DNA of 36,374 nucleotides from Psammoneis japonica (Eukaryota). Below the pieces are notes generated by a model. That model was given only the letters and a program-made list of their open reading frames with translations. It had not been told where the DNA came from and searched no databases. The stretch lies in the NCBI GenBank assembly GCA_008632985.1, contig QPGO01000378.1:1-36374 (forward strand), read 5' to 3'. Every line of letters starts with the position of its first letter. The stretch's first letter is position 1. Both the position numbers and the translations under genes were made by a program. This document shows positions 4,351 to 36,374 of the stretch, one piece after another.

Positions 4351-4386
4351 ACAGACCATCTCTGCTAGAAATCTACGCTATTTCAC

Positions 4387-11717: not shown

Positions 11718-11965
11718 CTGATGCGTCGTGAGTGCGAGCGAGAACCACCGCCATGGTGACTCCTCACTCCTCACTGCGTAGCACGAGCTCGATGAGAAAC
11801 TCGAGCTCCACAAAGAACTCGTGATTTTTGAAATATATTCATGAATATATACATAATACGGTTCGCAATGATTTTGGCGGGCAGCAATCACGCGCACAAC
11901 ACCCACACGCGCTGTTGCATCAACAACACAAGCAGTCTGTGTGGAGCTTCCATCAAAATTACATC

Positions 11966-13871: not shown

Positions 13872-15600
13872 CGAGTATTGGGGCGCAAGTTCGCTACGAT
13901 GGTTCAAGCGGCGCTCAGATGACGACTGAAATGACTATGAGTAGCTAATGTAGCTCCTATGGTTTCGCCATTTGAATACAGGGGACGACCTGAACAAGTT
14001 TCAAATCCCGGTTCTATGAAGGCGGGTCGTTTTTGACCTGCAGCACGTGAACCAGGTGGCCTGGCGTCTAATGCCTGTCTAACAAAATATCGTACATATA
14101 GAAAGTGGAACCGTTTTTTTATAGCCCCCCCTACTGTAACTATTGTTTGAGAGCATTCTGACAGGTTATGTCGCTCTCCAAATCAAAATGGACACACAAC
14201 AGGTGGTCTTTCATTCAGCATGTGACCCATCAGATATGGAGTGCCTCGAGCCAAATTTGAAACAACTTGGTCCTCACCATGCGTCAACCGACATGCATGG
14301 GGAACGCCTTTGGAGTGTCAGGTCCAAAAAACCTCCACCTGGTGATGCATTTTGGGTTTTCCCAGCAAATGATCCACACTCAAATTTGAAATTCCAGATG
14401 CTTGGATTGATGGACTGGCTCAGTGCAAGTTCTACAAAAGATTCTTTGGACCGGGTGGGTCTAAAGACATCCCCAGGAAGTTGTGGCATGACCCATGACA
14501 GAGGAAGCCCATCCCTTGCTTTGCTTCATGTCTCTTCCTTCCTTTCAGCAGCATTCAAGCAAACAGGCTGCCAGTGCAGCAGCCACTGAGGACCAGAATG
14601 AAGTCAACCTGCCCACGTGGCTGCAAATGACTCAAATGGGGTGATGAGGAGTGAGTCACCTCCTTCCAAAAGACAAGATGCAGAAAAAAATGAGGCATCA
14701 TCACCTGCCACAGAGGAACCACAAGGGACATCTGGAAGCACTCCAGAGAAAAGCAGAAGAACAAGAGGCAGAAGAAAATGTGGAAGCTCCAAAAGATTGC
14801 ACCAAAAAAGTCATAACTCAAGAGACCACATTTCACAAGGAGGAGTTTGCATGCCCTTCTTGTGACACTGAAGGAGGAACACATTTTCTCCTTCAAGGAG
14901 GGTTGACCACAGGTCATGCACACACATGAAAGTTTGGTTGTGCAGCTGAATGTTCCTCATTGATGCCAGAAAAAATTGTGAAAAACTCAGCTGGGTGTCG
15001 TTTCACAAATCCTTTTGCCACATCTGATTGGCAAAGCTGCCAGCAGCTGAACAGCTCTGGCTGCCAATGCAAAATTCTGTTGGCTGTGAGGACAACAAAG
15101 AAGCTGGTGTGATTGGCAAAAGAAGATCATGCAGCATCCTTCTTGTGCAGAGCAGCTCTCTGTGTTCCAAGAAGACAGTTTGTTGCAGGGAGACCTGGTG
15201 CATTGGCACAGTGCTTTTAAACTGGTGCATGTGCTGCCTTGGAAGCCATTGTTTTGGTCTTCGTCTTGGTGGAATCTCTCACCATTTAGAGATGGCTCCA
15301 CCAACATGTCCAAGGCCCCAAGAAGCAAAGCCGTGAGGTTCACGTTGCACTTGGCAAAGCACAAGAGGAAGCTGGTGTGTGTTCTTCTTAGCAGATGAGA
15401 CAGAGATGATGAAGGCAAACGGCCGTGCTCTTTTTTCAACAAAGATGCATCAGATTGCATTGACTGTTGCTGGTTCCATGACACAAATCCCAGGAAAGTT
15501 TTTGCACTTCACACTCCACAAATGTGGCAACACATTTTGGTCATGGTTGCACATGCATCAGATGAAAGCTGACCTTTGTTGCAAGAACAAGCAATGCAAA

Positions 15601-15914
15601 TGAGGTGCGAGTGTGAATCTGATTGCCCAGAAAATGAGTGCAAACTTCATGAAAATTGAACATTCTGCACAACCAAAAAATTGGCATTGCAAAAGATTGG
15701 GAAAATGGAAAGCAGTGCATGCAGCAGACTTGAGAGTTGCACCGCCATCATGACTGCAATTGCCATTCCAAACACTCACAGCTTTTGACCACCATGAGGC
15801 TCTGACTGGACACGGCTGATGTGATGAGCTGTGCACAGTGAGGTGCGAGTGCAAGTCTGATTGCCCAGAAAATGTGCAAACATGATAAACATTGAACATT
15901 CTGCACAACTAAAA
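15601..15914 (+). repeat. ~75 bp imperfect direct repeat (15601-15678 and 15839-15914)
   Basis: tgaggtgcgagtg..tctgattgcccagaaaatg..gtgcaaac..attgaacattctgcacaac occurs twice. Confidence 0.85.
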
Positions 15915-16009
15915 GATCGCTCTAGTTGGCTCTGAAACAGATTTCATTTTAAGACAACCCCAGTCTGTGGAAAGAATGACTCGCCAGGTCCATCGTCTTG
16001 CTGACCACC

Positions 16010-16700
16010 TCACTTTTCTTTGTTGGTTGTCAATTTCTGAGCAAGATCTTCAACTGCGGGAGTCACCCAGTCTTCTTGATTCTTGACATCATGAACTCTC
16101 TGCATGTCGAGTGCAACAGCCTTGATTTGACTGTTGACATGACACACGCCCACATTCCGCCAAGCTGCATCACCACGACGAAAGCCATCACCTGCGAAGT
16201 CCTTCACCAATGTCTGCCTTGCCGCATCCAAAGTTGACAGAGTCCTTTCCGGAGACTGAAACCAGGGCATCAACAAGGCTGTTTGGCCCTTGTCTTGTAC
16301 AACCCGAATGGTTTTGGGTGCTGGTGGAAGATGTGAGTGCACAGCTTTCCACATTTCCTCTTCATGCTTTGCCTTCAGATCAGACTCTTGGAAAAAAAAC
16401 TTCAAAACTCCAACAGCTCCCTTTGTGCCACCCAACACAAGGAAAACTCCACCATCAGCACCACGCCCAAGATCTTCCCACAGAAAAAAATTCTTGACAG
16501 TGCCTGAAATGCACAAATCAAAGTTCAAACTGCTTTGTGGTGGAGCCTTTTTCCAAGCAGAGCTCTTTTCATTGGCCAAGCACAGCACCATCATTGCACC
16601 TTCTTGCTTGGCAAGCATCATCTTTTTCACAACAGATGCAAACACAACTGCACCTGCCACGCCAGTTTGAAGTTGCTCAAGGCCTGGGTCTCACAGCAGT
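16010..16700 (-). pseudogene. Degenerate protein-kinase-like gene (Crinkler-type / DUF5898-like family, tentative)
   Basis: Gly-loop DLGRGADGGVFLV, VGVLKFF, HEEEMW, ALLMPWF, catalytic-loop-like GDAAWRNVG, VALDM. Homologous to 31608-32231. Family name is from recall only. Confidence 0.6.
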
Positions 16701-18082
16701 GTGTCGTGCATCATGGCTTGGGGGCACTGGAGCATGCTTCGGGCAACTTGGCACAATCACTCCATCCAAAAATGCTTTGTCAGGTCCCCTTCTCTGAATT
16801 CAAGCACAAGTCCTGTCATTCCCAGAAGCCCTTTCTCTTCTCTTTTGATTGCTTGTGGGTGCTGCATTGGGCACACTTCTTTTTTCAATGCAAGGTGGCT
16901 TGTTGCACTCCACCAGTTTCCCAAGGTGTGCTTGAGCAGGGTGAGCTCTTTTTCCACTTTCTCAGTGCTCTCAATGCATTTGATGGTGGAGTTGCAGAAG
17001 ATGCTCACATTGTTGTTGTTGTTTTTGGAAAGAACAGTTTTCATTGTGTGAAATCTGCAACTTGCTCTGCAATGCCATGTTGACAACACATGTGTGCAGG
17101 TGCTTCGTGCGCATGGATTGGGACAAGACTAAAAGAAAGGTTGCAACATCATGCCACTGTTTCTAAAAGTGAGATCTAAACCTGAGGAACTGCTCGGTGC
17201 CCAATCGCCAATGACAAAGCATGCCAAACTAACTTGAATTGATCACAGGGTAAATTCTTCAGTCTCCTCAAGTCGATGAATTGGACAATGTCAGAAATCT
17301 CTTTTTGCATTTGCCAACAGAACATCTGGTCAGAAATGCAAAATTCTTGACTGTGATGATGAAGCTGGTGTTGTCATGTTGGTTTTTTGAGCAGCAGATG
17401 TTCTCAGCACACCTGCAGCTGCAGCCGCCCCAGAGATCGTGCATCACTTTGACATGGAACAGCTCTCTGTGCTCCAAAATGACACAGTTTGTTTTTGAGG
17501 AAACCTGGCATCCTGGCAGCTGTGCACCATTCAAACCATCACAGAAGCCGCGGCCTCCTTTGCCAGGAGCCCGCACAACTGATGACACAGAAAATCAACA
17601 GGAGTGCAGGTGCTGCTTGCCTGTTGTTGCTTTGGCAGACATGGATGAGATGCACTGTGTCTGTTGGAGAACAAACTGTTTGATGATGAAGTGTGGGAAT
17701 TGTCTGGTGAGGCATTTTCTCTGTGTTTCTGGCGGCGCCAAAAGAGCTTCTGGAGCATGCCAGATTGGTGGCCCAAATGTGCTCTTGTGTGACACCAAAT
17801 TCATGGATGTTTGAAATGCAGGTTGGCTGGTCATGACATGCGGACATGCAAGTGCAAAGGTTGTGCAATGATGGCCTGAACAAAGAACATGGGAAAAGAT
17901 GTTGTGCATTTTGTTAAAAACTCTGCAGGTTTCACATGAACAAACATTTCATCAGACACATCTTTTCACTGAATTGCCGGATTTCACTTGAACTTGTGTG
18001 TGGAAGTCATTGTCTGATTTTGGTGACATCACAGAGGGCTTTTTGTCTCATTGCTCCTGAACTGATGTTCACAGGAAAGAAG

Positions 18083-18265
18083 ACTTGTGCAGACTTGTTG
18101 TGCTGGGTTGCACGAACTTGCACGAACTTGCATGGACTTTTTCACACTCAGGTGATTTGGTCACAAAAGCATGCACAAACTTGCATGAAAAACATGTGCC
18201 AACCTGCGCGAACTTGCTTGAGCTTGTGTGGGCTTGCGCAGATCACTTGCACAAACTTTTGCATG
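18083..18265 (+). repeat. Degenerate 10-bp tandem repeat (ttgcacgaac-like)
   Basis: ttgcacgaac ttgcacgaac ttgcatggac ... atgcacaaac ttgcatgaaa ... ctgcgcgaac ttgcttgagc ttgtgtgggc ttgcgcagat. Confidence 0.7.
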
Positions 18266-20303
18266 ACATTGCCCACCATGGCTGCTGTCATCATCACATT
18301 CGGTGACTGGCCACATTGAAGAAGGACATTTGATCAACAAATGAAATCCAGCAACTGATGAAGTGCAAAAACTTAGACATTTTCATTGTTTGAAGGAGAC
18401 GATGTCACTCGTTGTCACCCGGCAAGTGACAACAAGAACAACAAACAACAGTTGCCAGTTGACATGTGTGCTTTCATCATCTTGGTGTCAACTCCACATG
18501 CAATCATGAAAAATTGAGTGACAGCATTTGTTGCATTCTTGTTTTGAGCAAGAAAGCATTTGCCAAAATGATGCACATGTTTGAAAGTTCGTGCTCCTAA
18601 TTTCACACACACAAGCAGCCAAAAGCCAAGAGTGTGGCTTCAGCATTGCCACTTCTGATAGAGCTGGTCACAATGTGTTGTTTCTGACATTGACAAGGAA
18701 GCTGGTTTCTTTGTGGCCCATGTTCAATTGAAGCCTGTGCAGGCCCTGGGGATCTCCTCAAAGAAGTTTCTTTTTCAGACAGCGCAGAGACACATGACCA
18801 CCAAAGGTGGGGGGCACTTGCTGTTTTTGCAGTCATGAACAAAAACGTCTGCTTGCACATGTTTTTTGCTTTGTTGATGGTGAAGATGGGCATGATTGGG
18901 GAGCCTCACTCTGTGCCTTGGTCACCCCATTTCCAGAGCTTGGCGTTTGACGCAACATGGCAGAATCTTTTGAAAAATCATGCACCTTCGAGGGACGGGC
19001 AGGCTCTCTGTTTTTTGGAGCAAGTCGGGAGCAGGAATGGCCCATCTCACTTGGAAGCACACATTTTGCTCTCCAGGGGAGGGGGGGCTTGCTGCAATCA
19101 TGCTTGTCATCAGGTGAAAGATGCCAAGACAGACCCATGCTTCTGCTGAAGTGGAAGAAAGCCCCTCTTCTTCAATGTCAGAAATCACAAAAAAAGACTG
19201 AGCTGGGCTCTGTTTCACAACTTCTCTTGCATCTGATTGACAAAGCCACCAACAGCTTGCCTGGTCACAAGCAAAACATTCTTGACTCTGTGTGGGAGTT
19301 GGCAGCATTGCCAGGTTTGTCTGTGGTTTTGGGCATGTTCTCAGCAATGTTCTTGTGGCTGGCTGCAACCCTGGAGCCAATTCAGTGCCTTGCCATGGAG
19401 CAGCTCCATGTGTTCCAAGAGTGCAGCTTGTTTTCACAGAAACATGACATCCCATGCATCATTGCTTCAAGTCAGCATGGTTTGCCACTGGCCGCCATCA
19501 CACCAAAATGGTGAGGAAACCAGGGGACGAGGCACCAGCAGCTCACGCAAAGAAACATCCAACAGCGTTGGACCAGGCACTTCATGACAGAGTGAGTGTC
19601 AACGGGAATGTGGGCACCACCACTTGCCCACAGTTGCTTTGACTGGTGTGAATGAGACATGCTGTGTCTGATGAAACATGCAGGTGGGATGTTGTTTTCT
19701 GTCTGCCCTCTCACAAAGAAGTCAGAAGCGCAACCACCAAGTGCAGGAGCTTTGGCACCGCCATTCCCAATGGAGTTGGGCAACATGCTGTTTCCAATTT
19801 GAAAAGGAAATTGGTTTCTTTGTCACCTGTGTGATCAAAGCCTGTGCACATCTCTGCCCCCAAAGTGTTCTCAAGGTTTTGCATCGCCACACATGCCAGC
19901 ACCACATGACCATGAGAGAGGAGGAGGACAGCGTGCCCCCAGAGACACCAAAGGTGGAATCCACTCACTGTTTGTGATCATCCACATTGTTTCTGTTCCC
20001 AAACATTCTTCACTTTCTCAATGCCGAAGATGGGCATGACTGGGGAGTTGGACTGCACGCCCTTGTTCTCGAAGTACGACAGTGCAGCTTGGCAGCTTGG
20101 CACTTGAAAAACCACGCACCTCCGCCCGATGATGTTTCGGCGATTGAGTCGTCGGGAACGGCCCATCACCTGGACAATGTTGTGACATACTGTAGTAGCC
20201 GTTCAGAGAGAAGCCACGTAGAAATAGTACTGCAACGAAAGTAGAGCGTCCGTCCGTTGCGTCGTTCACGCAAAGATCCCCAAGATCGCGAAAAACCACG
20301 CAC

Positions 20304-21057
20304 GAGTGGCGTACTTTCCAAAAGTGCGGTGCGCAGTACTCGTCTACATACGGACAAATAGCACTAGACTCTACGCACCGAACACAACAAGATTTCACTC
20401 ATTACGACAACAGCAGGGAAGTCTATCATGTCGGGTATATCGACGTTATTGCGCTTCTTGCGTATAAAAAATACATCAATCCACTAATATTACGCATGCG
20501 AATTGGATGGGATACAGGATCTTGCAAATCTGGTGAAAAAATCGTCCCCCCGTGCTTCACCGTGTTAAAAACCCCGTGCTAATCCTCCATAAAATGAATG
20601 AAAATCCAACTTTTCGTCAAAATCTGTTGTCGCGTGCTCACTTCAGTGCTTCATCAATGCGATCGACCGAGAAAACACAAAATACACCCCAAAAAAAGTG
20701 AAAAACAACAGTCCCACCGCGGCCAAAACCTCTACGTGATTTCAGTACCAAGTTGTACGTGCCAAAAACCCTTCGTCACCAATGGCTCAACCAGCTCCCA
20801 AAACAACTCGATCATTGTCATTTGACATTGATATCTCATTTCTTATCATATCAGTTGTTGTCTCGGTGCATCATAACCTCCCAGTCCGCTGTCGTTGTTG
20901 TGTGCGTCCATTGCCGATGTCGCGGCGTCGTTGCCGTGATGTTTGTGTGTGAAGTGAATTCAAATAAACATCTCTACGAATTTTGTAGTACATTTTTACG
21001 TACGTATATTTTGTGTAGATTAGGTATGCGCACCGAATTTTTGAAAGTACGCCACTC
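20304..21057. repeat. Imperfect ~45 bp inverted repeat pair (20304-20348 and 21014-21057)
   Basis: The reverse complement of 20304-20348 (tgtagacgagtactgcgcaccgcacttttggaaagtacgccactc) aligns to tgtagattaggtatgcgcaccgaatttttgaaagtacgccactc. Confidence 0.75.
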
Positions 21058-21182
21058 CATGGCGAAGACACAACACAGATGATGTCAAGGAATGCATGCG
21101 TCGATAAGTTGCACCGCGTCATTGCTATTGTAAATTGCCAAACGTTAACTGCCTGTAGAGACGGCCTGTGGTAAGAAGTAAA

Positions 21183-24100
21183 ATGAGCGGGTTGAACGCG
21201 TCGCAAGCAGACTTTGCCAAGCTACGGCAACATGTCCTTCAGTTTCTCAAAGAGCTTCGACGAGGCGACTTGTACGTATATGGGTTTGAAGCAGACGACT
21301 TTGATCATCTACTTGATTCGGACGGGAATGCTCCGCCTCTACAAGAAAAGACACATGTGTTTAATCGACTCTTGTTGGCGGTGGCACGAGAGCTTTCCGC
21401 TGGAAGCACGAGAAAGCGAAAACTAATCCTTGAGCAACTTTATTCGAACCTTGACGACTGGGTGGAAGCAATTAAAAACTTTGACGACAAGGCAGTCAAG
21501 AGCGAAACAGATGACGAATATCGAGGTACGTCAACTGCAAGTAGACAAGAACTTAAAACGGCAGAGGAAATTGATGCTGACACAAAGCTGGAAAAGAAAA
21601 TCGAAAAAGAGTCGACGAAATCTCGAGAAGAAAGCCTTCCCGAGACGCAGGATGAGATTGTGGATGTTTCTAAGGAAAAATCTGATGAAGTGAAGGTGAA
21701 ATCTATACCCAGAAAGAAAAGCAAAAAGAGAAAGTCAGAAGAAAAATCTGGAGAAGAAAGCCTTCCTGAGAAGCACAAAGAGCCTTTGGGTGTGAACGCG
21801 GAAGACGATGACCTAGAAAAGGTGAGATCTAAACCCAAGAAGAAAACCAAGAAGAGAAAACCAACTTCAGCTAATAATATCGAGGAGGAGGTGAGAACCC
21901 AATCGAAAAAGAAGAGCAAGAAGAGAAAATCAGCTGAAACCTTTGGAACTGAAACCGAAGACAATATCGAGGAGGTGAGATCGAAACCGAAAAAGAAGAG
22001 CAATAAGAAGAGAAAGTCAGCTGAACCATCTGGAGCTGAAAGCATTCCTGAAAAGCATGAAACGTCCTTGGATATGCAACTGGAAGACAGTGACGAAGCG
22101 AACACGATATCTAAACCTAAAAAGAAAATCAAGAAGAAAAAATCAGCGGAGAAGACTGGAAGAGAAAGCCTAGGTGAGAACCGTGACGAGAAGCCTTTCG
22201 ATTTGAACGTGGAAGAAAGCGACGAAGAGGAGTCTGCAGCAATACCCAGAAAGAAAAATGGCAAACAAAGATCACGTTCGGTCGAGAAAAAAGGGAACAA
22301 TCACGACGGAACAGAACAGCAAGCTGAACCACCCGAGCAAGAGGACCTAGCAAATGTCAGTCCTTCTGTCATTGCCAAAAGAGAAATCATGAAAAAAGAA
22401 TTCGAACAAGAAAAGGAGAGGATCATGTCTGGAATACCGGATGATGTGCGTTCCCAGTTTGGCCAAGTCGGATTTGCCAAGTGGTCCGGAGACTATCTTC
22501 CAGTCCTGTTTCTGAGCCCATACCATGTACCCCCTGGGGAGGTGCGCGAAAATTGGATGGCAATGTACAAGAACGTGAGTTACATACCAGCGCAACAACT
22601 CCGTCTTTCTTTTCTGAAAACTCTAAATCCTTGTCCTATTTTTATGATTTTTGCTAAACCCCAGACCAGGAACCGTAGAAGCAGCATGACGAGACTTGTT
22701 TATTGGTACGGAGAGCAAAATATGGAGGTAGCATTCTCGTTTTTGATTAAGAAGCATTGCATATCGTACGAGGAGGGGGTTCAAAAGGGCAAGCACAAGC
22801 TCAAGCGGGCTATCCAGAAAAAGGTGGACGCCGGCAAAAAGTTATCGGAAAAGGAGCAAGGCATGGTGAGAGGGTTGAAAGAAATCAATGCTGACGCCAT
22901 GAAAGACCCCAAGGATAGAAAGCTACCCTTTCCAAATTTTTTCGAGGAACACGAGGTTTTCGGACTTGAAGAAGACGAGGAAGTGGATGAAGAGCTTATC
23001 AGTAGTGATGAGGAACCGTCGCCAGTGAAGAAGAACGGATCGAAAAAAGTAGACCAAGACCTTGTTAGCAGTGACGATGAAGCACCGCCAAGAAAGAAGC
23101 TGCATAAAACATTTAAGAAAATCGACGAAGAGCTGATAAGCAGTGATGATGCATCGTCACCAAAGAAGAAGCCAGAGAAAGGATCAAGGAAAATCGACGA
23201 AGAGCTTGTGAGCAGTGATGACGAGCCGTCACCAAAGAAAGGATCGAAGAGAATCGACGAAGAGCTTGTAAGCAGTGATGACGAACCGTCACCAAAGAAA
23301 GGATCGAAGAAAGAGAACGAAGACCTTGTTAGCAGTAATGACGAAATGTCACCAAAGAAAGGACCGAAGAAAAAGAACGAAGAACTTATCAGTAGTGATG
23401 ACGAACCGTTGCCAAAGAAAGGATCGAAGAAAGAGAACGAAGATCTTATCAGCAGTGATGATGAACCGTTGCCAGAAAAACAAATGGAGAGAAAGGACGA
23501 AGAGCTTATAATTAGTGATGACGAGCCGTTGCTGGAAAAAGGATCAAAGAAAGGACCGAAAGAGCGAGATCGCGGAGACAATTCGCACGTTTCGGAAGGA
23601 CAAGACTTGGCGGAAAACGAAGTCTCATCGGGCGAGGAATACGAATATGCCGTCTCGAGCGAGGATAATGACGCTGATCAAAACTACGAACCGGAAACAA
23701 CCGCGAAAGCGAATAAGAAGAAACACGCGATTTACCGTCCAAAACTTCAAAGACGAAGCCAAAAAAGGCAAAGATTAACCGCAAGAGAAGCAAGGCAGCT
23801 ACTAAAGCCCGAGGAACAAAGGCAGATAGAATCAAGGCTGAATGGAGAAAAGAACAGCGCAAGTTCGAGGAGTGCGAAGATAAATTCCTTCCGTTGGAAG
23901 AGCGTTGGACATCGTCTCTCAAGACTGGAGACACCAGCGATCTTGCTGCGGTGATCAACGAGCTCTCTCATTTTGTCGATTCGCTGTCTCCCACATTCAT
24001 TGAGACTTACCAACTCGCTCGACTTATGAAGAAAACAAAACCAATTTTGAAGAATATGGAGACAGAGTACGGAGTGTATAAGAATGTATGGAACACAATG

Positions 24101-24943
24101 AAGGAGTTGTATCAGGCAGGCAGTGACAAGAAACCTGAAGGTTTTGTCCCAATAAGGAAGAGACCTTCAGAAGCAAAGGATATCGAGAGCAAGCCAAAAT
24201 CGGCAAGTAAAAAGAAGGTTCAGCCACTTGGATCGGACGACAAGTCCGTACAGCAGGTTGGCGAAAAGGATAGGAGCACAGCAACAGAAGCGCGGATTCC
24301 GAAGGCAGCTGCAGCAATTGAATCACCAGGTTCCCCAGCAGTGTCTCGGGTGACGAGCCAGAACACCTTGGATTCGCCAGATAAGGCGAGCCGCCCACCG
24401 GCAAAACCAGAAAGAAAAGCGTTTTCTCTTAATCATTTGATGCGTCCGAAAGGTGACTCGGCTAGCAATGCATCGCGTGGTAGTGCATCTGCCCAGGTTA
24501 ATGGCAGCGCTGGCAAAAGTAGTGTATCTGCCGAGGTTAATGGCAGCGCCGGCAAAAACGGCGGAAAAAACAGAACGGCAGAGGGTCCACCGATATGGTT
24601 GAGGACAGCACCTGTACACGACGACTCCGGTTCGGCGCTCAAAGGAGATAGGGGATTTGCATTGGAATTCCTCCAGACAGCTGCGTGTAAGTTTCCAGAG
24701 GGAGCGGTCGATGTGGAATCAGCAGCAAAATCATTAGAAGATGCCGTTTTCAAATGGTCAAAGACTCGAGGTAAGGATGATTGGAAAGAGCCCTACTGGG
24801 AAAAGGTACATTCCCTCGTTGCTGCAATATGCGGAAAGAAGGAGACGGGGTCGCTAGTGAAAGAAATACTATCTGGGAGGTACCAGTCAGCAAGCGACGT
24901 AGTTTCAGCCTCCGACGACATACTAAAGCGCTCGTTTGGATGA
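21183..24943 (+). CDS. Large nuclear chromatin/transcription-type protein: K-rich repeats, PWWP-like domain, acidic 20-aa repeats, TFIIS-like C-terminal domains; intron 22575-22664; apparent -1 frameshift at ~23722
   Basis: ORF 21168-23954 joins 23894-24943 when one A is restored in aagaaacac. The 90-nt in-frame GTGAGT..CCAG intron has a gctaaac branch point. VGFAKWSGDYLPVLFLSPY...LVYWYG is PWWP-like; SAAKSLEDAVFKW...YWEKVHSLVAAI is TFIIS-central-like. Confidence 0.75.
22980..23550 (+). repeat. Coding tandem repeat, 60-nt unit (20 aa, DEELVSSDDEPSPKKGSKK), about 9 copies
   Basis: Exact 60-nt periodicity is visible at 23200-23540, with looser copies upstream. Confidence 0.92.
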
Positions 24944-26049
24944 TAGAAATGTCAGGGTGCCCCATTGATTTGAATGTATCTCTTCTATCTTTTGGGGTGT
25001 AGTGTCGTTTGTGTTTGTAGACATGGCGCCTATGATGACGAAAAGGAGGTGGCGCTGAAGAGAAGGATGAAGCTGCCGAAGAAAGCGTAGGCTCTGGATA
25101 GGATGGTGAGTGCACCATTGATTTCATCGAGTCCGTCTGCGAGCGACAATCGTCAGAAACAGTTATCTTTTTCAAACGATGTATTCATCACCCGCGGGGT
25201 TTCAGATGAAAAAGCCCCTGCAATACATGCCGACCCTTCTGTTCGCTTTACTCCGCGTCATCAAAACACACACTCGCACATAGATATATAATCTGACTAG
25301 ATACCAGTTTTCTTAAATTACTCATCAGTGATTTTCTTCGATCTTTCATGACAGTACAGGGGTGTTGTGAAAAGAAGATCACCCGCATCACACAGCACAC
25401 TCTTATTGCGGTCTTGTGGCACATCGTCCTCGAAGATCGAAATATCACCACTAGATTGCATTCCACTTCCGAAAACGTAGCTCTCCAACAAAAAGGATAC
25501 TTCATCCCATATTACTGTCGTTGTCACCATTAACTCACTTTATGAATGCTCGGTCGTCGTCACCTAAACCAGCTAGCTAGCGCGACCCTTGTTGTTCGAA
25601 GTCCTTTGCTCGTCGCGCTTCTTCTGCTCTGTTATGGGTAAGGCCAAGGCTTCATCGTATGTACTTGTAGCCATTACCAACTGAAGAGCAGTTTTTATTG
25701 CAATTTGATGATTGAAAGGAGGTCCGTCTACTCCTAGATGATTCATGGCGGTGGTCCCATTACGTGTTGTACTAATGGCAGATCTGGCTACTTCAACCTG
25801 AGCTCTGGATGCTTGAGTAGTCCGTGATGCCTGGACAGATTCAACCAAGTCTCCACGGCACGGATCGAACGAGACTCAGAGTTCAATCGACCCATCACTT
25901 CAAATTCTCACTTTTTATTTTTGCTGAAGTTTTCGTCGAGCATGCCAAAACCTAGAAACTAGCATGAGCGACAGACTGATGCAATGTGTCAAGGCGCATC
26001 TATTGATTCTGTCGCACGAGGTTTGCATCTTCAAACTGCAAAGCAGAAG

Positions 26050-27450
26050 CTAGTCCTGAGTTAAGGTGTGGCCGAAAATAATGCTTTCCATGACATGCCA
26101 GCTGCGATGTCGCATCAAAGCCACATGCCGACCTTCGCGTGCCATTTTCGTTCTTGTGTCTTCATCCACATGCCAAAGATAGTGCTCGACTTTTTGAATC
26201 AAATCATCGACACTGCTATACATAACAAGGTTGACGCCATCCTCCAATCCTTCTGGGACGGAGAGCATCCGGTCCGCGAAGACCAAGGCACCGCTGACCA
26301 AAGCCTCCATCAGACGATAATGCCCTTCCCAAAGGTCTTTCTGGGCCTCGACGACGATTTTGGCTTGGAGTAAACCTTTCGCGTAGTCGCACTGCGCTGT
26401 GTGCCGTCCTTTCAAATTGGCCAACCCTGCTAGTCCCGCCCACCCCGTTGCATTCGGTGTCCTTGCATTCCACTCATTGATAATACGGCAGCTCACGTTG
26501 TCACGCAGGTGAGAGTTTTTCATTTTCCCACCACGGTCGACTCCTCTGCCATGGCATGGCCAGAAGTGTGCCACATCCACAGGCCGATATAACATGTATG
26601 ACAGGTCAGCAGTGGAAGCCACTACCGACTCCGCTCCACGTCTTTCTGGCACAATGAACTCTGGATGCTCCTGAAGAACAATGTCCATCGCCTCAAGCAT
26701 GTCGCTTCGAACAGCATAATGAAGTTTTTGGATTGGCGTGGTCGACCACAAAGAATAGTTGTGTTGAAGAAGTTGGTAATTCATGCTTCCAATCTCGATG
26801 CGCTTTATGGATTCATTCCAGTGCCGTCCAGTCACTACACTTCGCTTAAAGTATCGTACCTCCTCGAACGAATCGTACAACTCTGGACAATGCTGATATT
26901 CGACAGATGGCATATCTGGACTGTCTCGCCAATCCAGGACATATATGGACCAAGGTAGCAGGACTGTTTGACTGCCTCTTGCAGTTGTTTTCTGATTTGA
27001 TATCACCCTAGTAGCTTTCTTTACCGCCACCAAAAGATCCTTACACCAGTACATAAACCGACCTTGACTAGCATCTGCTATCCATATCACCTTACTAAAC
27101 ATTTTTGCCTCTTCTATCCGACTCACACGATGAATGTACTTCGATCGCTCTACACCATCAATGGTAAAGTGTCTCATTTCGTGTAAAGATTCATTGGCCA
27201 ACACGTTGGGCCACAAAAAGACAGGAACCGGTGATGTGTAGGCGGTCGTTGTCGACATTGGTTGGAATGACAGAATCTTTTCGATCGACACAGGACTAAA
27301 GCGCCAAAATTGCATAGTCATCAGACACACAACCAGCATCGTCGTCACCAATATACGGAACAATCTTGAGAAGTAAGCAGACCGCAACTTTTCGTCCTCG
27401 GTAGTATGTGATGATCTTCGGGGACGGCGTGCATCGTTCCTTCTTGTCAT
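26050..27450 (-). CDS. Type II membrane glycosyltransferase-like protein (GT-B, Glyco_trans_1_2/CgeB-like C-terminus)
   Basis: Intact 466 aa ORF with an N-terminal TM helix (ILVTTMLVVCLMTM). C-terminal Y...LLQAKIVVEAQKDLWEGHYRLMEALVSGALVFAD...LEDGVNLVMY.S..DL...V.HYL...R..MAREG. Confidence 0.8.
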   Translation of the reverse strand: MTRRNDARRPRRSSHTTEDEKLRSAYFSRLFRILVTTMLVVCLMTMQFWRFSPVSIEKILSFQPMSTTTAYTSPVPVFLWPNVLANESLHEMRHFTIDGVERSKYIHRVSRIEEAKMFSKVIWIADASQGRFMYWCKDLLVAVKKATRVISNQKTTARGSQTVLLPWSIYVLDWRDSPDMPSVEYQHCPELYDSFEEVRYFKRSVVTGRHWNESIKRIEIGSMNYQLLQHNYSLWSTTPIQKLHYAVRSDMLEAMDIVLQEHPEFIVPERRGAESVVASTADLSYMLYRPVDVAHFWPCHGRGVDRGGKMKNSHLRDNVSCRIINEWNARTPNATGWAGLAGLANLKGRHTAQCDYAKGLLQAKIVVEAQKDLWEGHYRLMEALVSGALVFADRMLSVPEGLEDGVNLVMYSSVDDLIQKVEHYLWHVDEDTRTKMAREGRHVALMRHRSWHVMESIIFGHTLTQD

Positions 27451-28677
27451 GATGAGTCAAACGACGAACCGTACGAGTTCTCAGTTCCTAGTCACCATAG
27501 CTATTGTAGTCGGTTTCCTTCGCAAAGTAACAGACTCATGAAGGATATAGCTTCAAAACTGGTTGAATGTGCTCACCCAGTTCATCAGCATTGACCAACA
27601 CAGCAATGTCTGCCCATGCATGGTGGTGTGGAAATGCCGCCTCTTAGACTCCACTTGTGGGGGTTGTGGGTGCACAGGCTCGTGGTGCCATGCATGGTGT
27701 GGCTCTCGGTTGCCAGTCCCTGAACTGGAGAGTGCAATTTGAAGCTTTCTCCATTGCCACAAAACAATGCTGACTGCACAAGTGCCCTTTTGTGGATGAG
27801 TCTAAATCATTGCCACTAAAAGCCATGTCAAATGGTGGCTGCACAAAGTCACACATGTGATGGGAAATCTCAAACCCATCTTCCACCTGATCTCCTTCAT
27901 CACATGAGAGAAATCACTTTGTTTTAATTCAACAACACATTTGTTGCAACATGCCCTTTGATGAGTGGATTTGCCATCAAACAAAGTTGTGATCTCATGT
28001 GTTGTTTGTGGGTGCACTTGAAGGTGTTCCTTTGTCTTGATCCATTTTTGCTTCAAACAAGAGAAGATCATTGACCAGCACATGTGAGAGTTGAATCTCT
28101 CACTCAGCTTTCAGTGCATTTCAATTCTCCCTTGAAGCATTCTGGAGCCCATGGAAAAGGTGTCCTCACCTGTCCCACTGGCAGCAACAATGTGTTTTCA
28201 TGTTGCAGTTGTTTTGACATGGTGCACATTCTTGTTTGAGCTCCTCCACACAACATCCCAACTCCCTGCACCCCACAGCCCACACCAGCAGCCCCACATG
28301 CCTGCCCAAAACTCTGAAAATTGATGGTCGATGTTGTTGCAGCTGCTTGCAGCGGACACAAGAACCAAGCCCAACTTGGACTTTGTGGACCCGGTGGAAC
28401 TCAAAGAAGACACCAGCAGGTGAAGCATCCTGCTTGAAATGTTCCTTCTCACAATGGAGGTTGTCCATGCCCTTGTTGAAGCACAAATGTTGGGCAATCT
28501 TGACCTGGGAGGTTGCAAGATCATGCCAAAGGGCATTTTCAGTGGCAGCCAAGGAAAGTGCCCTCCATGGAGCTGGGGCACAACTCAGCGCAGCAGTGGA
28601 TGGGTTTGTGAACCCAAACATGACAACCAATCACAGCCTTCACAGTGGCAAAGGCAATGTGGGCTGTGCCTTGATCC

Positions 28678-30500
28678 ATGGACACAACAGAGGCAGCAGC
28701 ACCTCTGCAAGACATGCTGGTGGCTGCAGTGAGCAATGCAGGCCCAGATGAGTCAGCACATGACACCATGACAAGTTTGTCAACATGTGCCAATGTGGGG
28801 TTGGCATTTGGTGCTGCAAGGGGCACTGCTGCCAGAGTGGTCACATGCGGCACAGCCTTGGATGCAACAGGCACAGCCATGCCTGCAGAAGACATGCTTG
28901 CATGTCCACAGCAGTCAATGCAGGTTCCAACAAGGAACCATGTGCCACCATGACAAGATTGTCAGTGGCACGGACTGATGAAGGAGTTGCGCTCTTTGTC
29001 AAATGGGGCACAAGCACTTGGTCAGTCACATGCTGCACATTTTTGGATGCATGAGATGTGAGAACATCTCCACAATGCCTGCTTGGTGTTGCACATGGCA
29101 GCACAGGACTTGACGGGTTGGTGCACAAGTCCATGACAAGGTCAGATGTGGGCAGCAATGGGGAGGGAAGATTTGTTGAAGAGCCTCAAGGTCAGCAAAC
29201 AACACTCTAAGGACCTTGACAAGCTCAGCGAGGTGCTCAAGGAGAACCTTGATCACCTGCAAGTCCATGAGTGTGGTTGCATTGACACCAAGTTTTGTGT
29301 TTTTGATTCTCACATCATTTCTTCTCAAATCATGCATTGTGCACACACAGAAGTTGGCAGTTAGCCATGGTGGCACAAGTGGAGAAAGAGAAGCCATCGA
29401 GGGTGTCTCTGCCTTTTTGAACAGTGATGATGAGCACCGCCAAGAGCTTGCATGTGAGCCCAAAAGCACAACCATGATTTGTGCACATTCTTTGCCAACA
29501 AAAAGGACAATGCCAAGGCACCTTGCATTCATGGCATTGCCCCGTGAACAAGAAAAAGAAGCAAGCTGAGATTGTGCTTCAAGGGATGGCAAATGTGTCA
29601 CTCAAGAATGCCTGGTGAGATTGGTCCAGCAACTTCAAAGCAGCATGGAAGGGCAAGAGTCTGATGAGGAGTCTCTAAAACAGGAAAAGGTTGAGCAGTG
29701 GGGGCACTCTTGCAGAGTCCAATTCATTCTTCTTGTGTGACAGAGACAGGAGTCAAATCCTGACACTGATGCAGAAAAGAATGATGATGTCATCAACAGC
29801 GCCTTTTTGTGCCAGGGCTTGATCCAAGTCCTTCTTGGCTCTTGAAAGAGCAAGATGAGGCCCATTGACAAGATTGTTCAGGAAGACATCAAGCCGCTTG
29901 TGCAACTGGGTTTCTGGCAAGTCTTGCATGAGTTGAAAAAAATCAAAGTCATTGTCTGCTTTCTAACCAAGATTGCAGATTGTGCATCAGTGGTCACTCA
30001 TTGGGTGGTGTGATTGCAACACTGTTTGGATTCTGCATGGCTGCAGATCCAGACCTTGCCAAAGAAGGGCCCATCATGGTTTGCACATTTGCAGTGCCTC
30101 GTGTCAGTGATGCTGCCTTTCATGAAGGTGCCTTTTTGTCCTGGACTGAGATTTCAAGCATGCAAGTGCAGGGGAGTTGCACCTCTCATGCTTGACTTTT
30201 TTCTCTTTTGCAGTCCCTCAACTGCCCTGGCCAGCCGGACTTCACAAACATGATGGCATGGAGGTGCGACTTTGAAAGGATGGACCTCCCGTTGTGGATT
30301 GTCCAGTCAAATGCTCTTGGCAACAATCTGGCTCAGGGGTCATGAAAAGCATTGCCTCAATGCCACAAGCCTTGATGTGTCATTCCTGCAAAGAAATGCT
30401 GAAACGATTCAAGAAGTCCAAGGACGCTTTTCTCAAATCGACACTGGAGCACAAATGCCGTTCCATGAGCGGAATTTTAACGTGTCGAGAAGACGGACCC
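28678..30500 (+). pseudogene. Class-3 lipase (Lipase_3, alpha/beta hydrolase) pseudogene
   Basis: CISGHSLGGVIATLFGFC...VCTFAVPRVSDAAF (GHSLGG nucleophile elbow; the family has YTFxxPRVG). At ~29525-29595, CIHGIA.VNKKKKQAEIVLQGM matches the family's YGI.VN...KR..VVFRG(S/T). Multiple stops and frameshifts; ends approximate. Confidence 0.8.
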
Positions 30501-31031: not shown

Positions 31032-31607
31032 TCAAGAGTGCTTGTGTGTTCACGATTGGCGCTCACAAGCTCTCGCGCCAGGCCAAATCAAATCGTGTGA
31101 AAAGTGGGAAATTGGGAGCTGGTGGCTGTCCTTTCAGTGATTTGCACAATCGTTGTGTGCTGGAGTGCACTGAGGAAACATTCCAATTGGGCTGCGCACG
31201 CTGCAGGCCAAATGAGTTCTTGTGCAAAGCCTGTGCGTGCTTGCAAGTGCAACTTGCGGCTTCCACACAGAAGTGAGGAGAGCCCCAAACACACTTTTTC
31301 TCAATTGAGACTTCCTGAATGGAGTCTGACTCCATTGAGTGCAGCACACAGAAGCTTTTACAACCTCGCTGTTTTGCCGTTCATGGGGATTGCAAAGACT
31401 GCAAAGCGAGTGAATTGCATTTACAAGAAAATGACAAATGTCCATGCTGGAAGGCACAGGGAAGCAACACGAAGTGAAACAATGCAATTCTACAATCTAA
31501 GAGAGCACCTCCACAGAGACAGTCTTCTAGCTGAAGAGCATGCTTCTCTCATCATGAACAATGCAGCCTTTGCTGGCGGCTCCACACTTGCACAGCATCG
31601 TCCTCAC

Positions 31608-33200
31608 CTACGACCCCTCCACAAAAGGCAACTTCTCAGAGTCACATGGGACTTCCTGGGCATTGAGAGGTTTGCTCTCTTGTTGGACTTCCCGTGGAGC
31701 ACGATCTTCTAATTTGCGGCAGCGCTCCTCCACAAACGAATCATTTTCCGCCTGCTCCAAGTTGCCAAGATCACAAAGGACGCAATTTTCCTTGTGGGTC
31801 CCGATGTGATGCCATCGGATGTCCTCCTCTTTGTGCTTCAATCGCTTTGCATGGAACACATCCTTTAGCACCTTCCTGATGTCGGGCAGCTGATCCCTGC
31901 AGCCACTGGCACTCGTTGCCATGGGTTCAAATGACGGCATTTTGACACAGCAAAAGCCAAAGACATTTGTGACTTCCACCTCATCTGCTAAAAATGGGTG
32001 GAAATCGCAAAGCAGCTTCGCCTCATGCAAAGTTGCACCTTCTGCCTTCTCCTTGAACTCGTTCCATCCCACAGTGTCACCTGTGGTGACGTCTGCATTG
32101 TTGACATGCACCTTCAATGCGACTTGCTTGCCACTCAAATCCAACGCATGGAAGATGTTAGAGGTTGTGCCATGTCCAACGATCCCGATGACATGGAATG
32201 CTGCATCATCATCTTTGTCCACCAGCTGCACTTTGGAGCTCGTTGAGAGAGCAGCATCTCTGGGTCAACTTTTCCGGCTCTCCATCTTGTCACCTGGTCT
32301 GACAAACAGATCCCCCCACAGGCATTTCTTCACTGCAGTTTTCGATGTGGCCGAGGAGCTTTTGTTCAGCACTCGCAGCACTTTTGGAAAGCAGCAGTTT
32401 CCATTGGACTTGAGCTTCAACATGCTCCGCATGGACTCTCTGCAACTCTTCTTAGCAATTCTCAGAGCAGTGCAGACAAGCTTTGCAAGCTCATGAGACT
32501 CGAGCTCCTTGGATTGCAACATCTCTCGGCCTCCAGTTCCCTTTGTGAATAAATTCCTGAAATCCGCCCCACTGGCGTTCGAACCCGGGGATGAGTCGCA
32601 GGAGACGGGTGGCACCATGGGCAGTTCCGCATTCTCCCAGGACAAGTTGGACTGCCGGGGCGGCGACGATTGCGGTTGATTGCGATCTTGCTTGATGATT
32701 GTGGCTGCGGGCTGGCAGGTGCTTCTTCTCCATCTCTTCCATCATTTGTTTCTTCATCGAACTTAAGTTCTTCCAGAGAGCATGGAATGGACTTCTCAAA
32801 TGCAGTGAGAAGGACGAGCCCATTTCCTTCTTGTCCAAACACATCATCAGAGTGCACGAAATGTTAAAAATGTGCAGATTTGCATGATGACAATTTGTCA
32901 AAATGTTGCAAAACATTGTTGTCATGTGATGAAAGGCCAACCTCTGGTTGCAAGTCAGCTGTGCCAATGTTGCAACAACTCACCAAGAATCATGCATGCC
33001 ATTTTTCACTGCACCCACATCACTGTGTCTGCCTCCACCTTGTTGCCACATGCCAATGCGTGATTGCATTTCCACACAATCCTTGGTTTGTTGATTTTCG
33101 CAAACATTGTTTTAAACGAGAAGAGCATTTCGTCGGTTGGGTCAATCCCTTGTTGCATCTGCAGTGCAATGACCGAGTGCCATGTAAACTGTGCACACAT
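31608..33200 (-). pseudogene. Degenerate protein-kinase-like gene (same family as 16010-16700)
   Basis: VIGIVGHGTTSNIFHAL...VALKVHV...HEAKLL...VKMPSFEP...EEDIRWHHIG..CVLCDLG, with upstream fragments in other frames (SHELAKLVCTAL, FPKVLRV). The 5' limit is approximate. Confidence 0.65.
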
Positions 33201-34441
33201 TTTCTTGCTGCAACTCTCTTAAACTGAGCCAACGATCATCATCGGACTCGTCTCCATCGGACTCGTTTCCTCTGTCATCCGTTTTGCCTTTTGTGCCTTC
33301 CTCCTGCTCATCGTCGTTGCTGTTGTTGTCCCTGCTGCTCTCCACCATTGGGCTGTTCATTGCCTTCACCTTGTCCGTGTCACCGGTCGGTGCTTTCTTT
33401 TTCTTCTTTTTTGCTTCTCCGGACTTCTTGCACTTGCTTTTCTTGATCTCCGCATGCCACTTTTCAAACTCCTTGCCCTCCTTGGAGTCTCTGTCTTTCG
33501 TCACCTCTTCACACAAATCGTTGAAAAGATTGATTCCGTCGTCTCCCCAAGACACTCGTTGTTTCTTTGGTTTCATGCACCGAGGGGCAGGCCTTGTTTC
33601 TTTGGGCTCCATTTCCTCACCCAATTCTTCCACCGCCTCCTCCTTGTTCCTGTGTGCCCACACCTGCCAACAATTCTCCATGGCCAACAGCACCAAAGCT
33701 TCGTCACCGACCGTAAACAACTGTGAGACCTTTGCATTCCCAGTTTTGACGGTGCTGCTCCGTGCCTGCTTTTGCTTGGTTTGAGGCAGGATGTGATCAC
33801 AGAACCACTTGTGTGCCTGCTTGTTCCTTCGTTTACCGCCGGTGACAGTGTCCAGGCTAAACGGATCCCATGTCGGCACAAACGGGATGTCATTCTCTTC
33901 ACTCTTGTCACAGCTTGACTTTTTCCTCTTTTTCCTCCTGTCTGCCGCCTTGAGTTTCTTTTCTTTTTCCTTTCCCTCTTCCTCAGTGACAACGCCTGCA
34001 TGGACAAAGCATCACCGTCATCTTCTTGTGAGACACGCGCAACTCTCGAATCACACACATTGGTCACTTGACTTGCGGGCCATTGCCTCCGCCCCAATGG
34101 CCGAACACACCGTGTTTCCGCGATTGTCAATTTGCCTTTTTACCGCCTTTTTTGCCCATTCCTCCCAAGTTCCTGACCAATTTGAAGTGTCCATGTTGCC
34201 ACCAGCAGATCTGTTTCTTGACAAAACATTGAGACGCTCCATTGCTTGCCAATTCTGATGGACTGAGAAAATTCACCTGTGGAAAGAGATCATTTCCAGC
34301 CACCTTCTCTGCTTCTGATTTCAATGCACCATGTGCTGCCTGCGCACCTGTTCTCTTCAACACTGCCTGAAGTCTCGGGCTCATTGGCTCAACAGTCTCA
34401 TTTTTCTTTCTCTTCTTTGCCGGTTGTGCTGGAGACGACAT
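33142..34441 (-). pseudogene. Degenerate repeat-associated ORF (TxxDEAxxLLxxEN family; possible DNA-transposon accessory gene)
   Basis: WFCDHILP...FTVGDEALVLLAMENCWQVW...WGDDGINLFNDLCEEVTKDR...FE. I recall this motif pattern from multicopy diatom ORFs. Upstream fragments include LFPQVNFL. The transposon link is inference. Confidence 0.5.
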
Positions 34442-35066
34442 CTTGATCTTTTCACGGCAACAGTGAGAGGAGTGGCACTGTTCGACAGTGCAACCGTCAT
34501 TTGGGTCGTGTTGAGACAGCCAGCCACTCTATTTTTCTCTGTGACATTGCACAAACCATTGTCAGCAACATTGAAATTTGAAAACACATTTGTGCACAAC
34601 AATGAACAGCCCAACTTGCTTTTTGACATGGCTGTCATTGCATTTCAACGGAGACAATGTCCTGCATTTTGATGGTGAATAAAAAGCACAACATTCATTG
34701 TGGATGCCAGATAAAAAATCAAAATGCAGGTGCGTGACACCCACAAGAATCATCCCAATCTGGAAGACAATGCAATGTTTGCCAATTTCCCGCCATTTTT
34801 TGTGTGTTGTTCTTTTTTTCCCTTCTCATCCACAAGACAAGGACACGAGCATGAGTCTTGATGAAGGCCCTGTCAATGTTGTCTGATTTGCAATGGACGG
34901 AAACCCTCTTCTCTGTCCCAGTTGTGGCCAAAGTTTTTTGCAAATGGCCTGCCATTGGAGATGCTCACCGACGTGTTGCGCAGTTGCCCAAGAGTTGCAA
35001 ACCCAAGATCCAATCCCAGATCAAAGCAACATTCCTGCCACAACAGAGGGGCCACCCAAAGAAAGC

Positions 35067-35807
35067 NNNNNNNNNNNNNNNNNNNNNNNNNNNNNNNNNN
35101 NNNNNNNNNNNNNNNNNNNNNNNNNNNNNNNNNNNNNNNNNNNNNNNNNNNNNNNNNNNNNNNNNNNNNNNNNNNNNNNNNNNNNNNNNNNNNNNNNNNN
35201 NNNNNNNNNNNNNNNNNNNNNNNNNNNNNNNNNNNNNNNNNNNNNNNNNNNNNNNNNNNNNNNNNNNNNNNNNNNNNNNNNNNNNNNNNNNNNNNNNNNN
35301 NNNNNNNNNNNNNNNNNNNNNNNNNNNNNNNNNNNNNNNNNNNNNNNNNNNNNNNNNNNNNNNNNNNNNNNNNNNNNNNNNNNNNNNNNNNNNNNNNNNN
35401 NNNNNNNNNNNNNNNNNNNNNNNNNNNNNNNNNNNNNNNNNNNNNNNNNNNNNNNNNNNNNNNNNNNNNNNNNNNNNNNNNNNNNNNNNNNNNNNNNNNN
35501 NNNNNNNNNNNNNNNNNNNNNNNNNNNNNNNNNNNNNNNNNNNNNNNNNNNNNNNNNNNNNNNNNNNNNNNNNNNNNNNNNNNNNNNNNNNNNNNNNNNN
35601 NNNNNNNNNNNNNNNNNNNNNNNNNNNNNNNNNNNNNNNNNNNNNNNNNNNNNNNNNNNNNNNNNNNNNNNNNNNNNNNNNNNNNNNNNNNNNNNNNNNN
35701 NNNNNNNNNNNNNNNNNNNNNNNNNNNNNNNNNNNNNNNNNNNNNNNNNNNNNNNNNNNNNNNNNNNNNNNNNNNNNNNNNNNNNNNNNNNNNNNNNNNN
35801 NNNNNNN
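35067..35807. other. Assembly gap (N run)
   Basis: 741 N bases. Confidence 1.
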
Positions 35808-36374
35808 AGTGGCAGGCGCAGTTACGAAGACGGACACTGACCCGGAGAAACAATTTCTAGTGCAATGTCATTTACCTCGACAAGACTGGCAGGACACAAG
35901 GGATGGGATCATGTTTGCGGAGAGCCAGTGATCATGACCTCTGCACATGTTGCCTTCAACAAATGGTCAGACAAGAGTGTCTGGAAACCAATTGTTGTCT
36001 CCCGGATTTGGAAAAGATGTCGTCATCTGCGGCAAAGAATCTCTCAACAATCAAGGCAGAGAAGGGACGCTCATTGACAAGAGACCACACACTTGCTTGC
36101 GTGTCATTTTGGAGCCACTTTTGGAAGTCATGAGAAAAGGAGGCATGAAAACATGCGTGCAACGAGGGGATGAGATGCGACACTCCACGCAATTCCACTG
36201 ATCGTTCTCGATCATAGGAGATGCAAAAAGCGGCAACTGTCTCGTCGGACGATGCGGAGTCACAACTGTCTCACGTTGCTGTCGTTTTTGCCTGGTGGCT
36301 TCAACAACTGGACGAACCCATGGATTGAATGCGAGTTTGTCCGAGGACTGGATCTCCACCAAGTGCAAACTAAG

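Follow-up and report, generated by a model that had tools for sequence, protein, structure and literature searches.

The window analyzed here, a stretch of 36,374 nucleotides from the diatom Psammoneis japonica (GCA_008632985.1, contig QPGO01000378.1), ends inside a mobile element that has lost nearly all of its TpA dinucleotides (TA) and has kept most of its CpG dinucleotides (CG). According to alignments with other copies, positions 32845..36374 (+ strand) are the left half of a 7.43-kb PlavakaB (CMCT/CACTA-related) DNA transposon, interrupted by an assembly gap (35067..35807, 741 N) and cut by the end of the contig. The element begins with a 15-bp left terminal inverted repeat (32845..32859, +; terminus CATCA), as read from the copy ends. 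The start of its Plavaka transposase gene (34886..36374, +), inferred from a full copy, L033, runs into the gap. Positions 32845-35066 match positions 1-2221 of L033, and positions 35813-36374 match its positions 2989-3559.

The boundaries of the 7.43-kb element were defined from 20 longer stretches picked out of the top 30 matches. Left ends were CATCA in 19 of 20 copies, the 20th being the allelic copy whose end was deleted; right ends were TGATG in 15 of 16, and a target site duplication (TSD) was present in all 15 copies with both ends (2 bp in 14, 3 bp in one). The transposase profile PF18759 matched L033 narrowly over its cut-off (E 2.5e-6; 27.4 bits for a cut-off of 26.3), and the motifs typical of Plavaka transposases, C(2)C and H(3-4)H, were read in the translated copy. 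Termini, TSD, and transposase are all as described for PlavakaB in the available part of the defining study (CATCA..TGATG termini, a TSD of 2-3 bp, and a PF18759 transposase that has C(2)C and H(3)H; PMC12730594), which concerns fungi. The present element, by contrast, belongs to a diatom genome and has a second gene that falls in no known family. Related elements were sought in JGI metagenomes, where 44 pattern matches were obtained and none was confirmed. At least 40 copies of the segment under study (33142-34260) were present at 89-97% identity (40 of 165 candidates scored), and the summed read depth of run X1 over it was 4,000-14,000 versus 50-59 in the flanks, which does not amount to an exact copy number. 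One Plavaka copy (L044/L010, C234:43700-54415) was without a right end, ran into TA-rich DNA, and contained more transversions than its sisters.

The segment 33142-34260 holds 6 TA and 46 CG in total. A preliminary description, made from the letters of the window, had counted by hand about 2 TA and 26 CG at 33241-33840 and had described both dinucleotides as gone at 28441-29040. Exact counting gave the same figures for the first interval (TA=2, observed/expected ratio (o/e) 0.07; CG=26, o/e 0.71) and 0 TA (o/e 0.00) and 4 CG (o/e 0.09) for the second, which lies in an older repeat block (27620..30500) nearly devoid of TA and CG whose best other copy is 85% alike. The idea that CpG stands at gene-like levels in the segment had to be abandoned. 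Of 72 CG sites in the reconstructed founder (see below), 26 have become CA or TG; the open frame at 33142-34011 contains 34 CG versus 48 (95% range 38-58) after recoding of its peptide with host codon usage, taken from 7 host open reading frames (ORFs); and the host-like median CpG o/e, in windows with TA o/e of at least 0.3, was 0.96 (5-25% range 0.65-0.83).

Two observations could point to composition, codon usage, or an inherited TA-poor founder: the segment shows a strand skew, with A 186 and T 375, and all 30 copies compared were TA-poor (o/e 0-0.24; CpG o/e 0.59-0.78), which by itself could mean inheritance. However, 5000 base shuffles of 33241-33840 yielded on average 28.6 TA with a minimum of 15, compared with the 2 seen, and the recoded frame contained 27 TA (minimum 12 in 2000 recodings) compared with 5 in the actual one. 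Inheritance is also contradicted by the comparison of copies. Column classes were derived from 21 copies, and 33142-34260 was projected onto 20 full-length copies for the founder sites. One hundred column pairs held TA, CA, or TG without CG, 284 held CG, CA, or TG without TA, 6 held both TA and CG, and an additional 162 held CA and TG only, these classes overlooking any founder TA that was turned into one product in all copies. Where CA/TG-only columns fell on codon positions 1-2, outside transposase homologues had Tyr in 14 of 19 cases and never Arg, and at CG-class columns they had Arg in 11 of 22. The former columns thus correspond to fully converted TA sites. The L033 transposase contains 3 Tyr, 50 Cys, and 37 His per 972 amino acids (aa); four outside homologue proteins have a normal Tyr content (2.6-3.2%), and conserved Tyr codons of the transposase in the window are now His or Cys codons.

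The founder of 33142-34260 contained 38 TA (o/e 0.61) and 72 CG (o/e 1.11). Six of these TA were kept in the window, 17 became TG, 14 became CA, and one fell in a gap; 45 of the CG were kept, 14 became CA, 12 became TG, and one changed otherwise. The products of change were almost exclusively transitions, and they were balanced both in the TA class (CA 664, TG 676) and in the 284 columns of the CG class (CA 1011, TG 942). Because the TA products were balanced and two copies agreed in product at just 56-64% of sites, TA conversion can be placed after insertion, separately in each copy. Newly arising TA were removed as well: among the C>T classes, CA>TA was the least frequent (1.0 per 1000 versus 3.5-4.9 for CT and CC), TC>TA was found once in 4138 sites, and TT>TA was never found in 4899.

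An assembly artefact is equally difficult to sustain. Contig C358 is the allele of the window (99% in the flanks), and within the Plavaka arm its TA products agree with those of the window at 85 of 85 sites; the region ~31872-32853, and with it the outermost bases of the terminal repeat, is absent from this contig. Run X1 contigs, which probably derive from the same sample and are thus not independent, and in which copy-specific sites within the arm are unresolved, differed from the window at no position over 28612-29191, in the TA-free old block, and at one over 31020-32872, and this agreement also speaks against an artefact. Taken with the founder TpA o/e of ~0.6, the copy-specific products, and the Tyr residues of the homologues, an explanation by composition, codon usage, a TA-poor founder, or assembly is hardly conceivable. 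The preliminary description had named skewed composition, codon usage, and equally low TpA in intact family members as what could undo its reading; recoding, the normal TpA of the founder, and a young copia family with TpA o/e of 0.69-0.77 left that reading standing.

TA loss was ahead of CG loss in all four families in which it was measured per site (1.6-12x). In the Plavaka family (20 copies), the kept fraction was 0.134 for TA and 0.624 for CG, i.e., -ln(kept) of 2.0 versus 0.47 and a ratio of 4.3. The corresponding values were 0.216, 0.728, and 4.8 for a second, long terminal repeat (LTR)-like family (15 of 30 loci, those at ≥85%), 0.219, 0.882, and 12 for a related LTR-like family (5 copies, one near-duplicate dropped), and 0.964, 0.978, and 1.6 for the young copia family (12 of 150 RVT_2 matches, chosen for long frames and similar scores). 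The LTR label of the second and the related family (families 2 and 4) refers to a 220-bp terminal repeat and to motifs that we take to be integrase-like; neither family gave a Pfam match. Nine older loci at 71-79%, with o/e of 0.02-0.11 for TA and 0.09-0.54 for CG, were excluded from the per-site counts. Since background transitions in the Plavaka family amounted to ~0.005 per base, TA loss was ~200x and CG loss ~50x background, and TpA was saturated by ~1% background divergence. The comparison block at 27620-30500 is older than the Plavaka arm because its transversion divergence to the best other copy is higher (0.042, versus 0.010-0.014 for three Plavaka copies and 0.027 for a fourth). These alignments support a TA loss faster than CpG decay, ~4x in the Plavaka family, as the preliminary description had supposed for TpA conversion relative to 5-methylcytosine (5mC) deamination.

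The rate of TA loss depended strongly on the neighboring bases (R, purine; Y, pyrimidine). RTAY sites were kept in 21 of 1272 cases (1.7%), mixed contexts in 394 of 2679 (15%), and YTAR sites in 233 of 897 (26%); this order was repeated in all four families, and the rates in the 16 contexts were concordant between two of them (rho 0.85). CG retention by flank spanned just 0.65-0.82. If the change is read as A>G, its rate was 2-3x higher before a pyrimidine. AA and GA were spared (4.9 and 4.5 per 1000), CA>CG was barely raised (6.6 per 1000, a value confounded with CpG polarity), and the TA survivors in erased windows were mostly in TAA/TTA and CTAC/CTAG contexts.

Coupling between sites was examined by permutation of site states among copies. 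Neighboring converted TA had the same product in 50-54% of cases, as in the permutations (|z|≤1.7; all |z|≤1.8), and TA products showed no strand link with CG products. The kept or lost states of TA and CG were unlinked at 2-30 bp (z 1.3 and -0.6), with z up to 2.0 at 101-300 bp. These tests bear on the possibility that TA loss arises secondarily from CpG methylation, in which case T:G mismatches would be repaired by an error-prone, pol-eta-like polymerase that mutates nearby A:T pairs. A W-A motif is a signature of such polymerases, the targets are the same, and TA loss correlates with CG loss over age. However, besides the missing coupling at 2-30 bp and the missing strand link, AA was not raised, changes were almost only transitions, and TA events per site exceeded CG events, so that this highly improbable explanation is largely refuted already.

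The two alleles inform on the timing of conversion. In the arm, TA differed between them at 9 sites and were the same at 7, and CG differed at 22 and were the same at 56 (Fisher p 0.04); host-gene TA differed at 10 sites and were the same at 470. The host genes at 19900..27600, an untouched control (TA o/e 0.38-0.78, CG 0.79-1.42), had 245 TA the same and 3 different. Since 9 of the 16 remaining arm TA sites differ, TA conversion went on after the split of the alleles. A one-off burst soon after insertion, resembling repeat-induced point mutation (RIP), could explain why TA loss was steep early (0.04 at a CG loss of 0.02; 1.5 at 0.13) and flat later, and why copies of the Plavaka family were over-dispersed in TA loss (sum z2 189, 19 degrees of freedom). 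The flattening is in part due to slow YTAR sites, though, and both the differences between alleles and the lack of strand-coordinated runs run counter to a single burst, which we regard as very unlikely; repeated short bursts are possible.

The genome-wide distribution of the two losses was assessed by sampling 38 stretches at arbitrary round coordinates, which gave 755 windows of 500 bp. TA o/e was below 0.2 in 309 of these windows (41%), with sharp borders to normal DNA. The plot of the two indices was L-shaped: among 225 windows with CpG o/e below 0.4, TA o/e was below 0.15 in 215 and at least 0.3 in 3, and TA below 0.15 together with CG of at least 0.6 occurred in 38 of the 755. Over 52 copies, TA and CG retention were correlated with a rho of 0.84 (0.67 without the young family and 0.80 within family 2), the significance of these values being overstated since copies share ancestry. 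TA kept in Plavaka copies was unrelated to flank TA (rho -0.11, n=28), so targeting follows the element and not its neighborhood, and no gradient of TA loss was observed along the element. Spreading from a surrounding domain was discarded as a cause in this family, as just 5-12% of the TA remains in copies whose flanks are host-like (TA o/e 0.43-0.58).

TA and CG loss are thus separate in mechanism, because there is no local or strand linkage and the flank rule is specific to TA, and common in target, because CpG-poor DNA that keeps TpA is almost absent and the two retentions are correlated over the 52 copies. The preliminary description had proposed that TpA conversion was independent of 5mC deamination and that both indices could serve as separate clocks. 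Independence applies to the mutational event, given the absent coupling and the weak relation within the family, but not to the choice of target or to time. Full uncoupling, with independently targeted losses and two separate clocks, would be in keeping with the weak relation among Plavaka copies (rho 0.49, p 0.024, n=21, but rho 0.22, p 0.27, n=28; residual r 0.10 after removal of two outliers), with the C234 copy that kept ~3x more TA (z=+11) at near-normal CG (z=+1.8), and with a rate ratio that varies from 1.6 to 12 among families. It is unlikely in view of the 3 CpG-poor windows out of 225 that keep TpA, the correlations over copies, and the sparing of host genes by both processes. As age markers, TpA and CpG act in stages and saturate, and the ratio of their rates varies between families (1.6, 4.3, 4.8, and 12) and between copies, so they are not independent clocks.

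We therefore consider it likely, from sequence comparison, that two point-mutation processes of differing speed act on the same silenced mobile DNA. After insertion, with TA and CG both normal (stage 1), each copy has its TpA replaced, one transition at a time, by TpG or CpA (A>G where A follows T, whichever the strand), the changes being scattered, independent, distributive, and continuing. The copy then passes through a stage in which TA is gone and 50-90% of CG is kept (stage 2, as at 33142-34260) to one in which both are gone (stage 3, as at 28441-29040). CG loss is quite likely to be ordinary 5mC deamination, and TA loss a separate enzymatic process drawn in by an identical or overlapping silencing mark. 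For the chemistry at TA, there is, by analogy, an even chance that an enzyme of the TadA/ADAT superfamily that prefers T-A-Y deaminates adenine (or methyl-adenine) in DNA; the resulting inosine would be fixed as G at replication, as suggested for the rhizarian alga Bigelowiella. More tentatively, and with somewhat less confidence, a natural nuclear DNA adenosine deaminase might patrol silenced transposons, recognize each independently of 5mC deamination, and edit T-A-Y while any remain, as a genome-defence mutator of a kind common to the rhizarian alga and possibly ancestral in SAR (stramenopiles, alveolates, and Rhizaria). If so, this patrolling deaminase would be a ready-made, strictly TA-specific adenine editor.

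Several points weigh against the two-process interpretation and its proposed chemistry. TA>TG and TA>CA are strand mirrors, so the sequence cannot say whether A or T is attacked. Searches for deaminases gave ordinary-looking, low-copy genes only (5 and 9 matches): TadA-like, ADAT2-like, dCMP-deaminase, and other cytidine deaminase (CDA)-fold genes are present in the genome with no expansion, and the ADAT2-like gene carries HAE, PCxxC, and the Asn, such a gene being expected in most eukaryotes. The Asn of ADAT2 is described as conserved in ADAT2 orthologues and, in the accessible part of the same work, the adenine preference of amphioxus ADAT2 is GAA and not TA (PMC10354150), so that ADAT2 is not favored. 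In favor of adenine deamination, TadA-like and ADAT2-like genes do exist in the genome, a variant of TadA-8e, ABE8e-YA, is described in the accessible text as preferring YAY over YAR (PMC12528748), the order that the A>G rates follow here, and other adenine editors are likewise described as favored by a preceding T (PMC8989541), but the TadA variant also accepts CA, while CA>CG is barely raised here. In the old blocks, surviving TA and CG differ equally between alleles (12/39 and 38/113), as expected if slow sites remain. The TA lead in the youngest family is only 1.6x, from 18 TA and 8 CG events, and both the shared ancestry of copies and the founder TA overlooked by the site classes call for caution.

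The process and its kinetics would be the same if the chemistry took place on thymine, i.e., if T in R-T-A were modified, for example oxidized, and paired with G to give T>C. The data are equally readable in this way, with a 5' purine preference; oxidized thymines are able to mispair with G, and an enzyme directed at T would suit the strict requirement for T before A and the near absence of CA editing. We obtained no positive evidence for it, and it seems rather unlikely. A search for TET/JBP found nothing, and since its controls were silent too, it was uninformative. ADAR-type RNA editing was rejected because we are dealing with a DNA transposon whose two strands are equally affected; PF02137 gave 4 matches at 2 loci. 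Two of the deaminase genes stood out: contig C79 carries a CDA-fold deaminase domain fused in one frame with a DIOX_N/2OG-Fe(II) oxygenase (L075:316-1791, -), probably involved in purine metabolism, and contig C38 a TadA-like gene of bacterial type (L072:1324-2055, +), whose product has a hydrophobic leader at its N-terminus and is probably organelle-targeted. PF00145 methyltransferase genes are present, and clustered, stop-containing PF00145 matches (C297, C301, C10:611000-617500, and C28:650500-651500) are possibly element-borne copies.

The closest known case is Bigelowiella natans, in which TpA>TpG/CpA hypermutation of integrated nucleocytoplasmic large DNA virus (NCLDV) and virophage DNA was reported, with ADAT2 proposed as the enzyme, a de novo rate of ~1000x background in certain mutation accumulation (MA) lines only, and an enrichment of transposable element (TE)-type domains among TpA-poor sequences (Mettrop et al., bioRxiv 10.64898/2026.01.13.699255). 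As far as the preprint's main text goes, both cases share A:T>G:C transitions at TpA only, on both strands (here CA 664 : TG 676), confined to foreign or mobile DNA, sparing host genes, and far above background (here ~200x, inferred from copies). They differ in that the preprint deals with a rhizarian, rates from MA lines, mainly two viral inserts (of which the larger is single-copy), and a moderate depletion (Rho 0.45), and its main text makes no mention of CpG or diatoms, whereas we describe a diatom with transposons of both classes (I and II), a depletion close to saturation in ~40% of sampled windows, accompanying CpG decay, and a measured flank rule and rate ratio. The literature search found no report of TpA hypermutation or depletion in diatom repeats or diatom mutation spectra, most subscription papers being outside its reach, and the TpA erasure pattern was otherwise found for one unrelated alga only, in this 2026 preprint.

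Other systems resemble only one side of the pattern. Diatom TE islands have CG methylation and DNMT5, in the portion available of Hoguin et al. (PMC9998398); the CG>TG/CA columns on both strands of the repeats and the PF00145 genes are consistent with 5mC decay of this kind, which, however, cannot remove TpA. The TadA-derived editors share A>G change in DNA after T, with YAY over YAR in ABE8e-YA (PMC12528748; ABE8e/ABE8.20, PMC8989541), but, in the parts of these sources at hand, they are engineered, Cas9-guided, and also edit CA, so that the resemblance is one of motif only. As in fungal RIP, to which Mettrop et al. also refer, the transitions studied here are repeat-directed and dinucleotide-specific, and genes are spared. 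RIP converts chiefly CpA to TpA, in strand-coordinated runs, whereas the direction is opposite here (CA>TA being the rarest C>T class) and no such runs were seen.

The preliminary description had also pointed to a frame of 245 aa still open in the segment. It exists as the remnant of an exon or frame of the element's Lys/Glu-rich second gene (33142..34011, - strand; 289 aa from stop to stop), the 245 aa being counted from a GTG and the first ATG leaving 179 aa. It is open over at least 270 aa in 12 of 30 copies and broken in the other 18. The frame had no Pfam match, a search through 470 candidates (158-506 aa) yielded no homologue, and its look-alikes in the Atlas were weak (recognition 1414, below the useful level). 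Under dinucleotide shuffles, P was 0.015 for 289 aa and 0.044 for 245 aa, and TA loss by itself is enough to lift the longest frame from a median of 123 aa to one of 160 aa. As its length is modestly unusual under these shuffles, the frame is probably a real ancestral exon; what is open today is a dead accessory-gene remnant, and its openness is no sign of function.

Elsewhere in the window, a second block depleted of TA and CG (14400..19900; TA o/e 0.00-0.11, CG 0.09-0.44) lies between host genes and contains a DUF5898 remnant (PF19250, E 3.4e-11) at 16013-16690 (-). At 30549-31014, a 30-bp near-perfect palindrome occurs three times and depth reaches 1800-2500, compared with 50-59 nearby; this is probably a high-copy element resembling a miniature inverted-repeat transposable element (MITE), in which TA and CG are better retained than in its neighbors. 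The region 31200-32844, adjoining the transposon, is TA-erased (o/e 0.08-0.18; CG 0.45-0.56). It is covered by one contig at flank depth and is therefore low-copy at 97% likeness, being either an old repeat or dead single-copy sequence. The window also contains tandem HSP20 genes with a third partial copy (269-4150) and a long Lys/Glu-rich gene with internal repeats of 60 bp and 126 bp and a weak TFIIS_M match (21159-24943). In the 91.4-Mb assembly, silicon-transporter genes are numerous (PF03842, best E 2e-208), which marks the genome as that of a diatom, and contig C38 holds a 1511-aa open frame with three silicon-transporter units (226311-230342).

To our knowledge, repeat-directed mutagenesis is textbook matter for cytosine only (RIP, 5mC decay, and APOBEC), and the process described here is directed at A:T and removes TpA several-fold faster than CpG decays in the same elements. 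The present analysis adds the flank rule, a rate ratio measured per site in four families, and the finding that neither local nor strand coupling occurs, together with element-level targeting and the continued action between alleles. Conserved Tyr codons become His or Cys codons, and TAA and TAG stops are removed, so that dead elements keep long, overlapping open frames and may be mis-annotated as genes. The dating of TE copies by divergence is distorted, because TA and CG steps account for most differences between copies. When the reasons for the variable ratio are known, the RTAY, YTAR, and CG classes would allow a staged, high-resolution ordering of very young insertions. Finally, a search for the enzyme that may act on the mobile DNA of this diatom can take direct predictions from the flank rule, the lack of processivity and of a link to nearby CpG changes, the targeting of elements, and the continuing activity.

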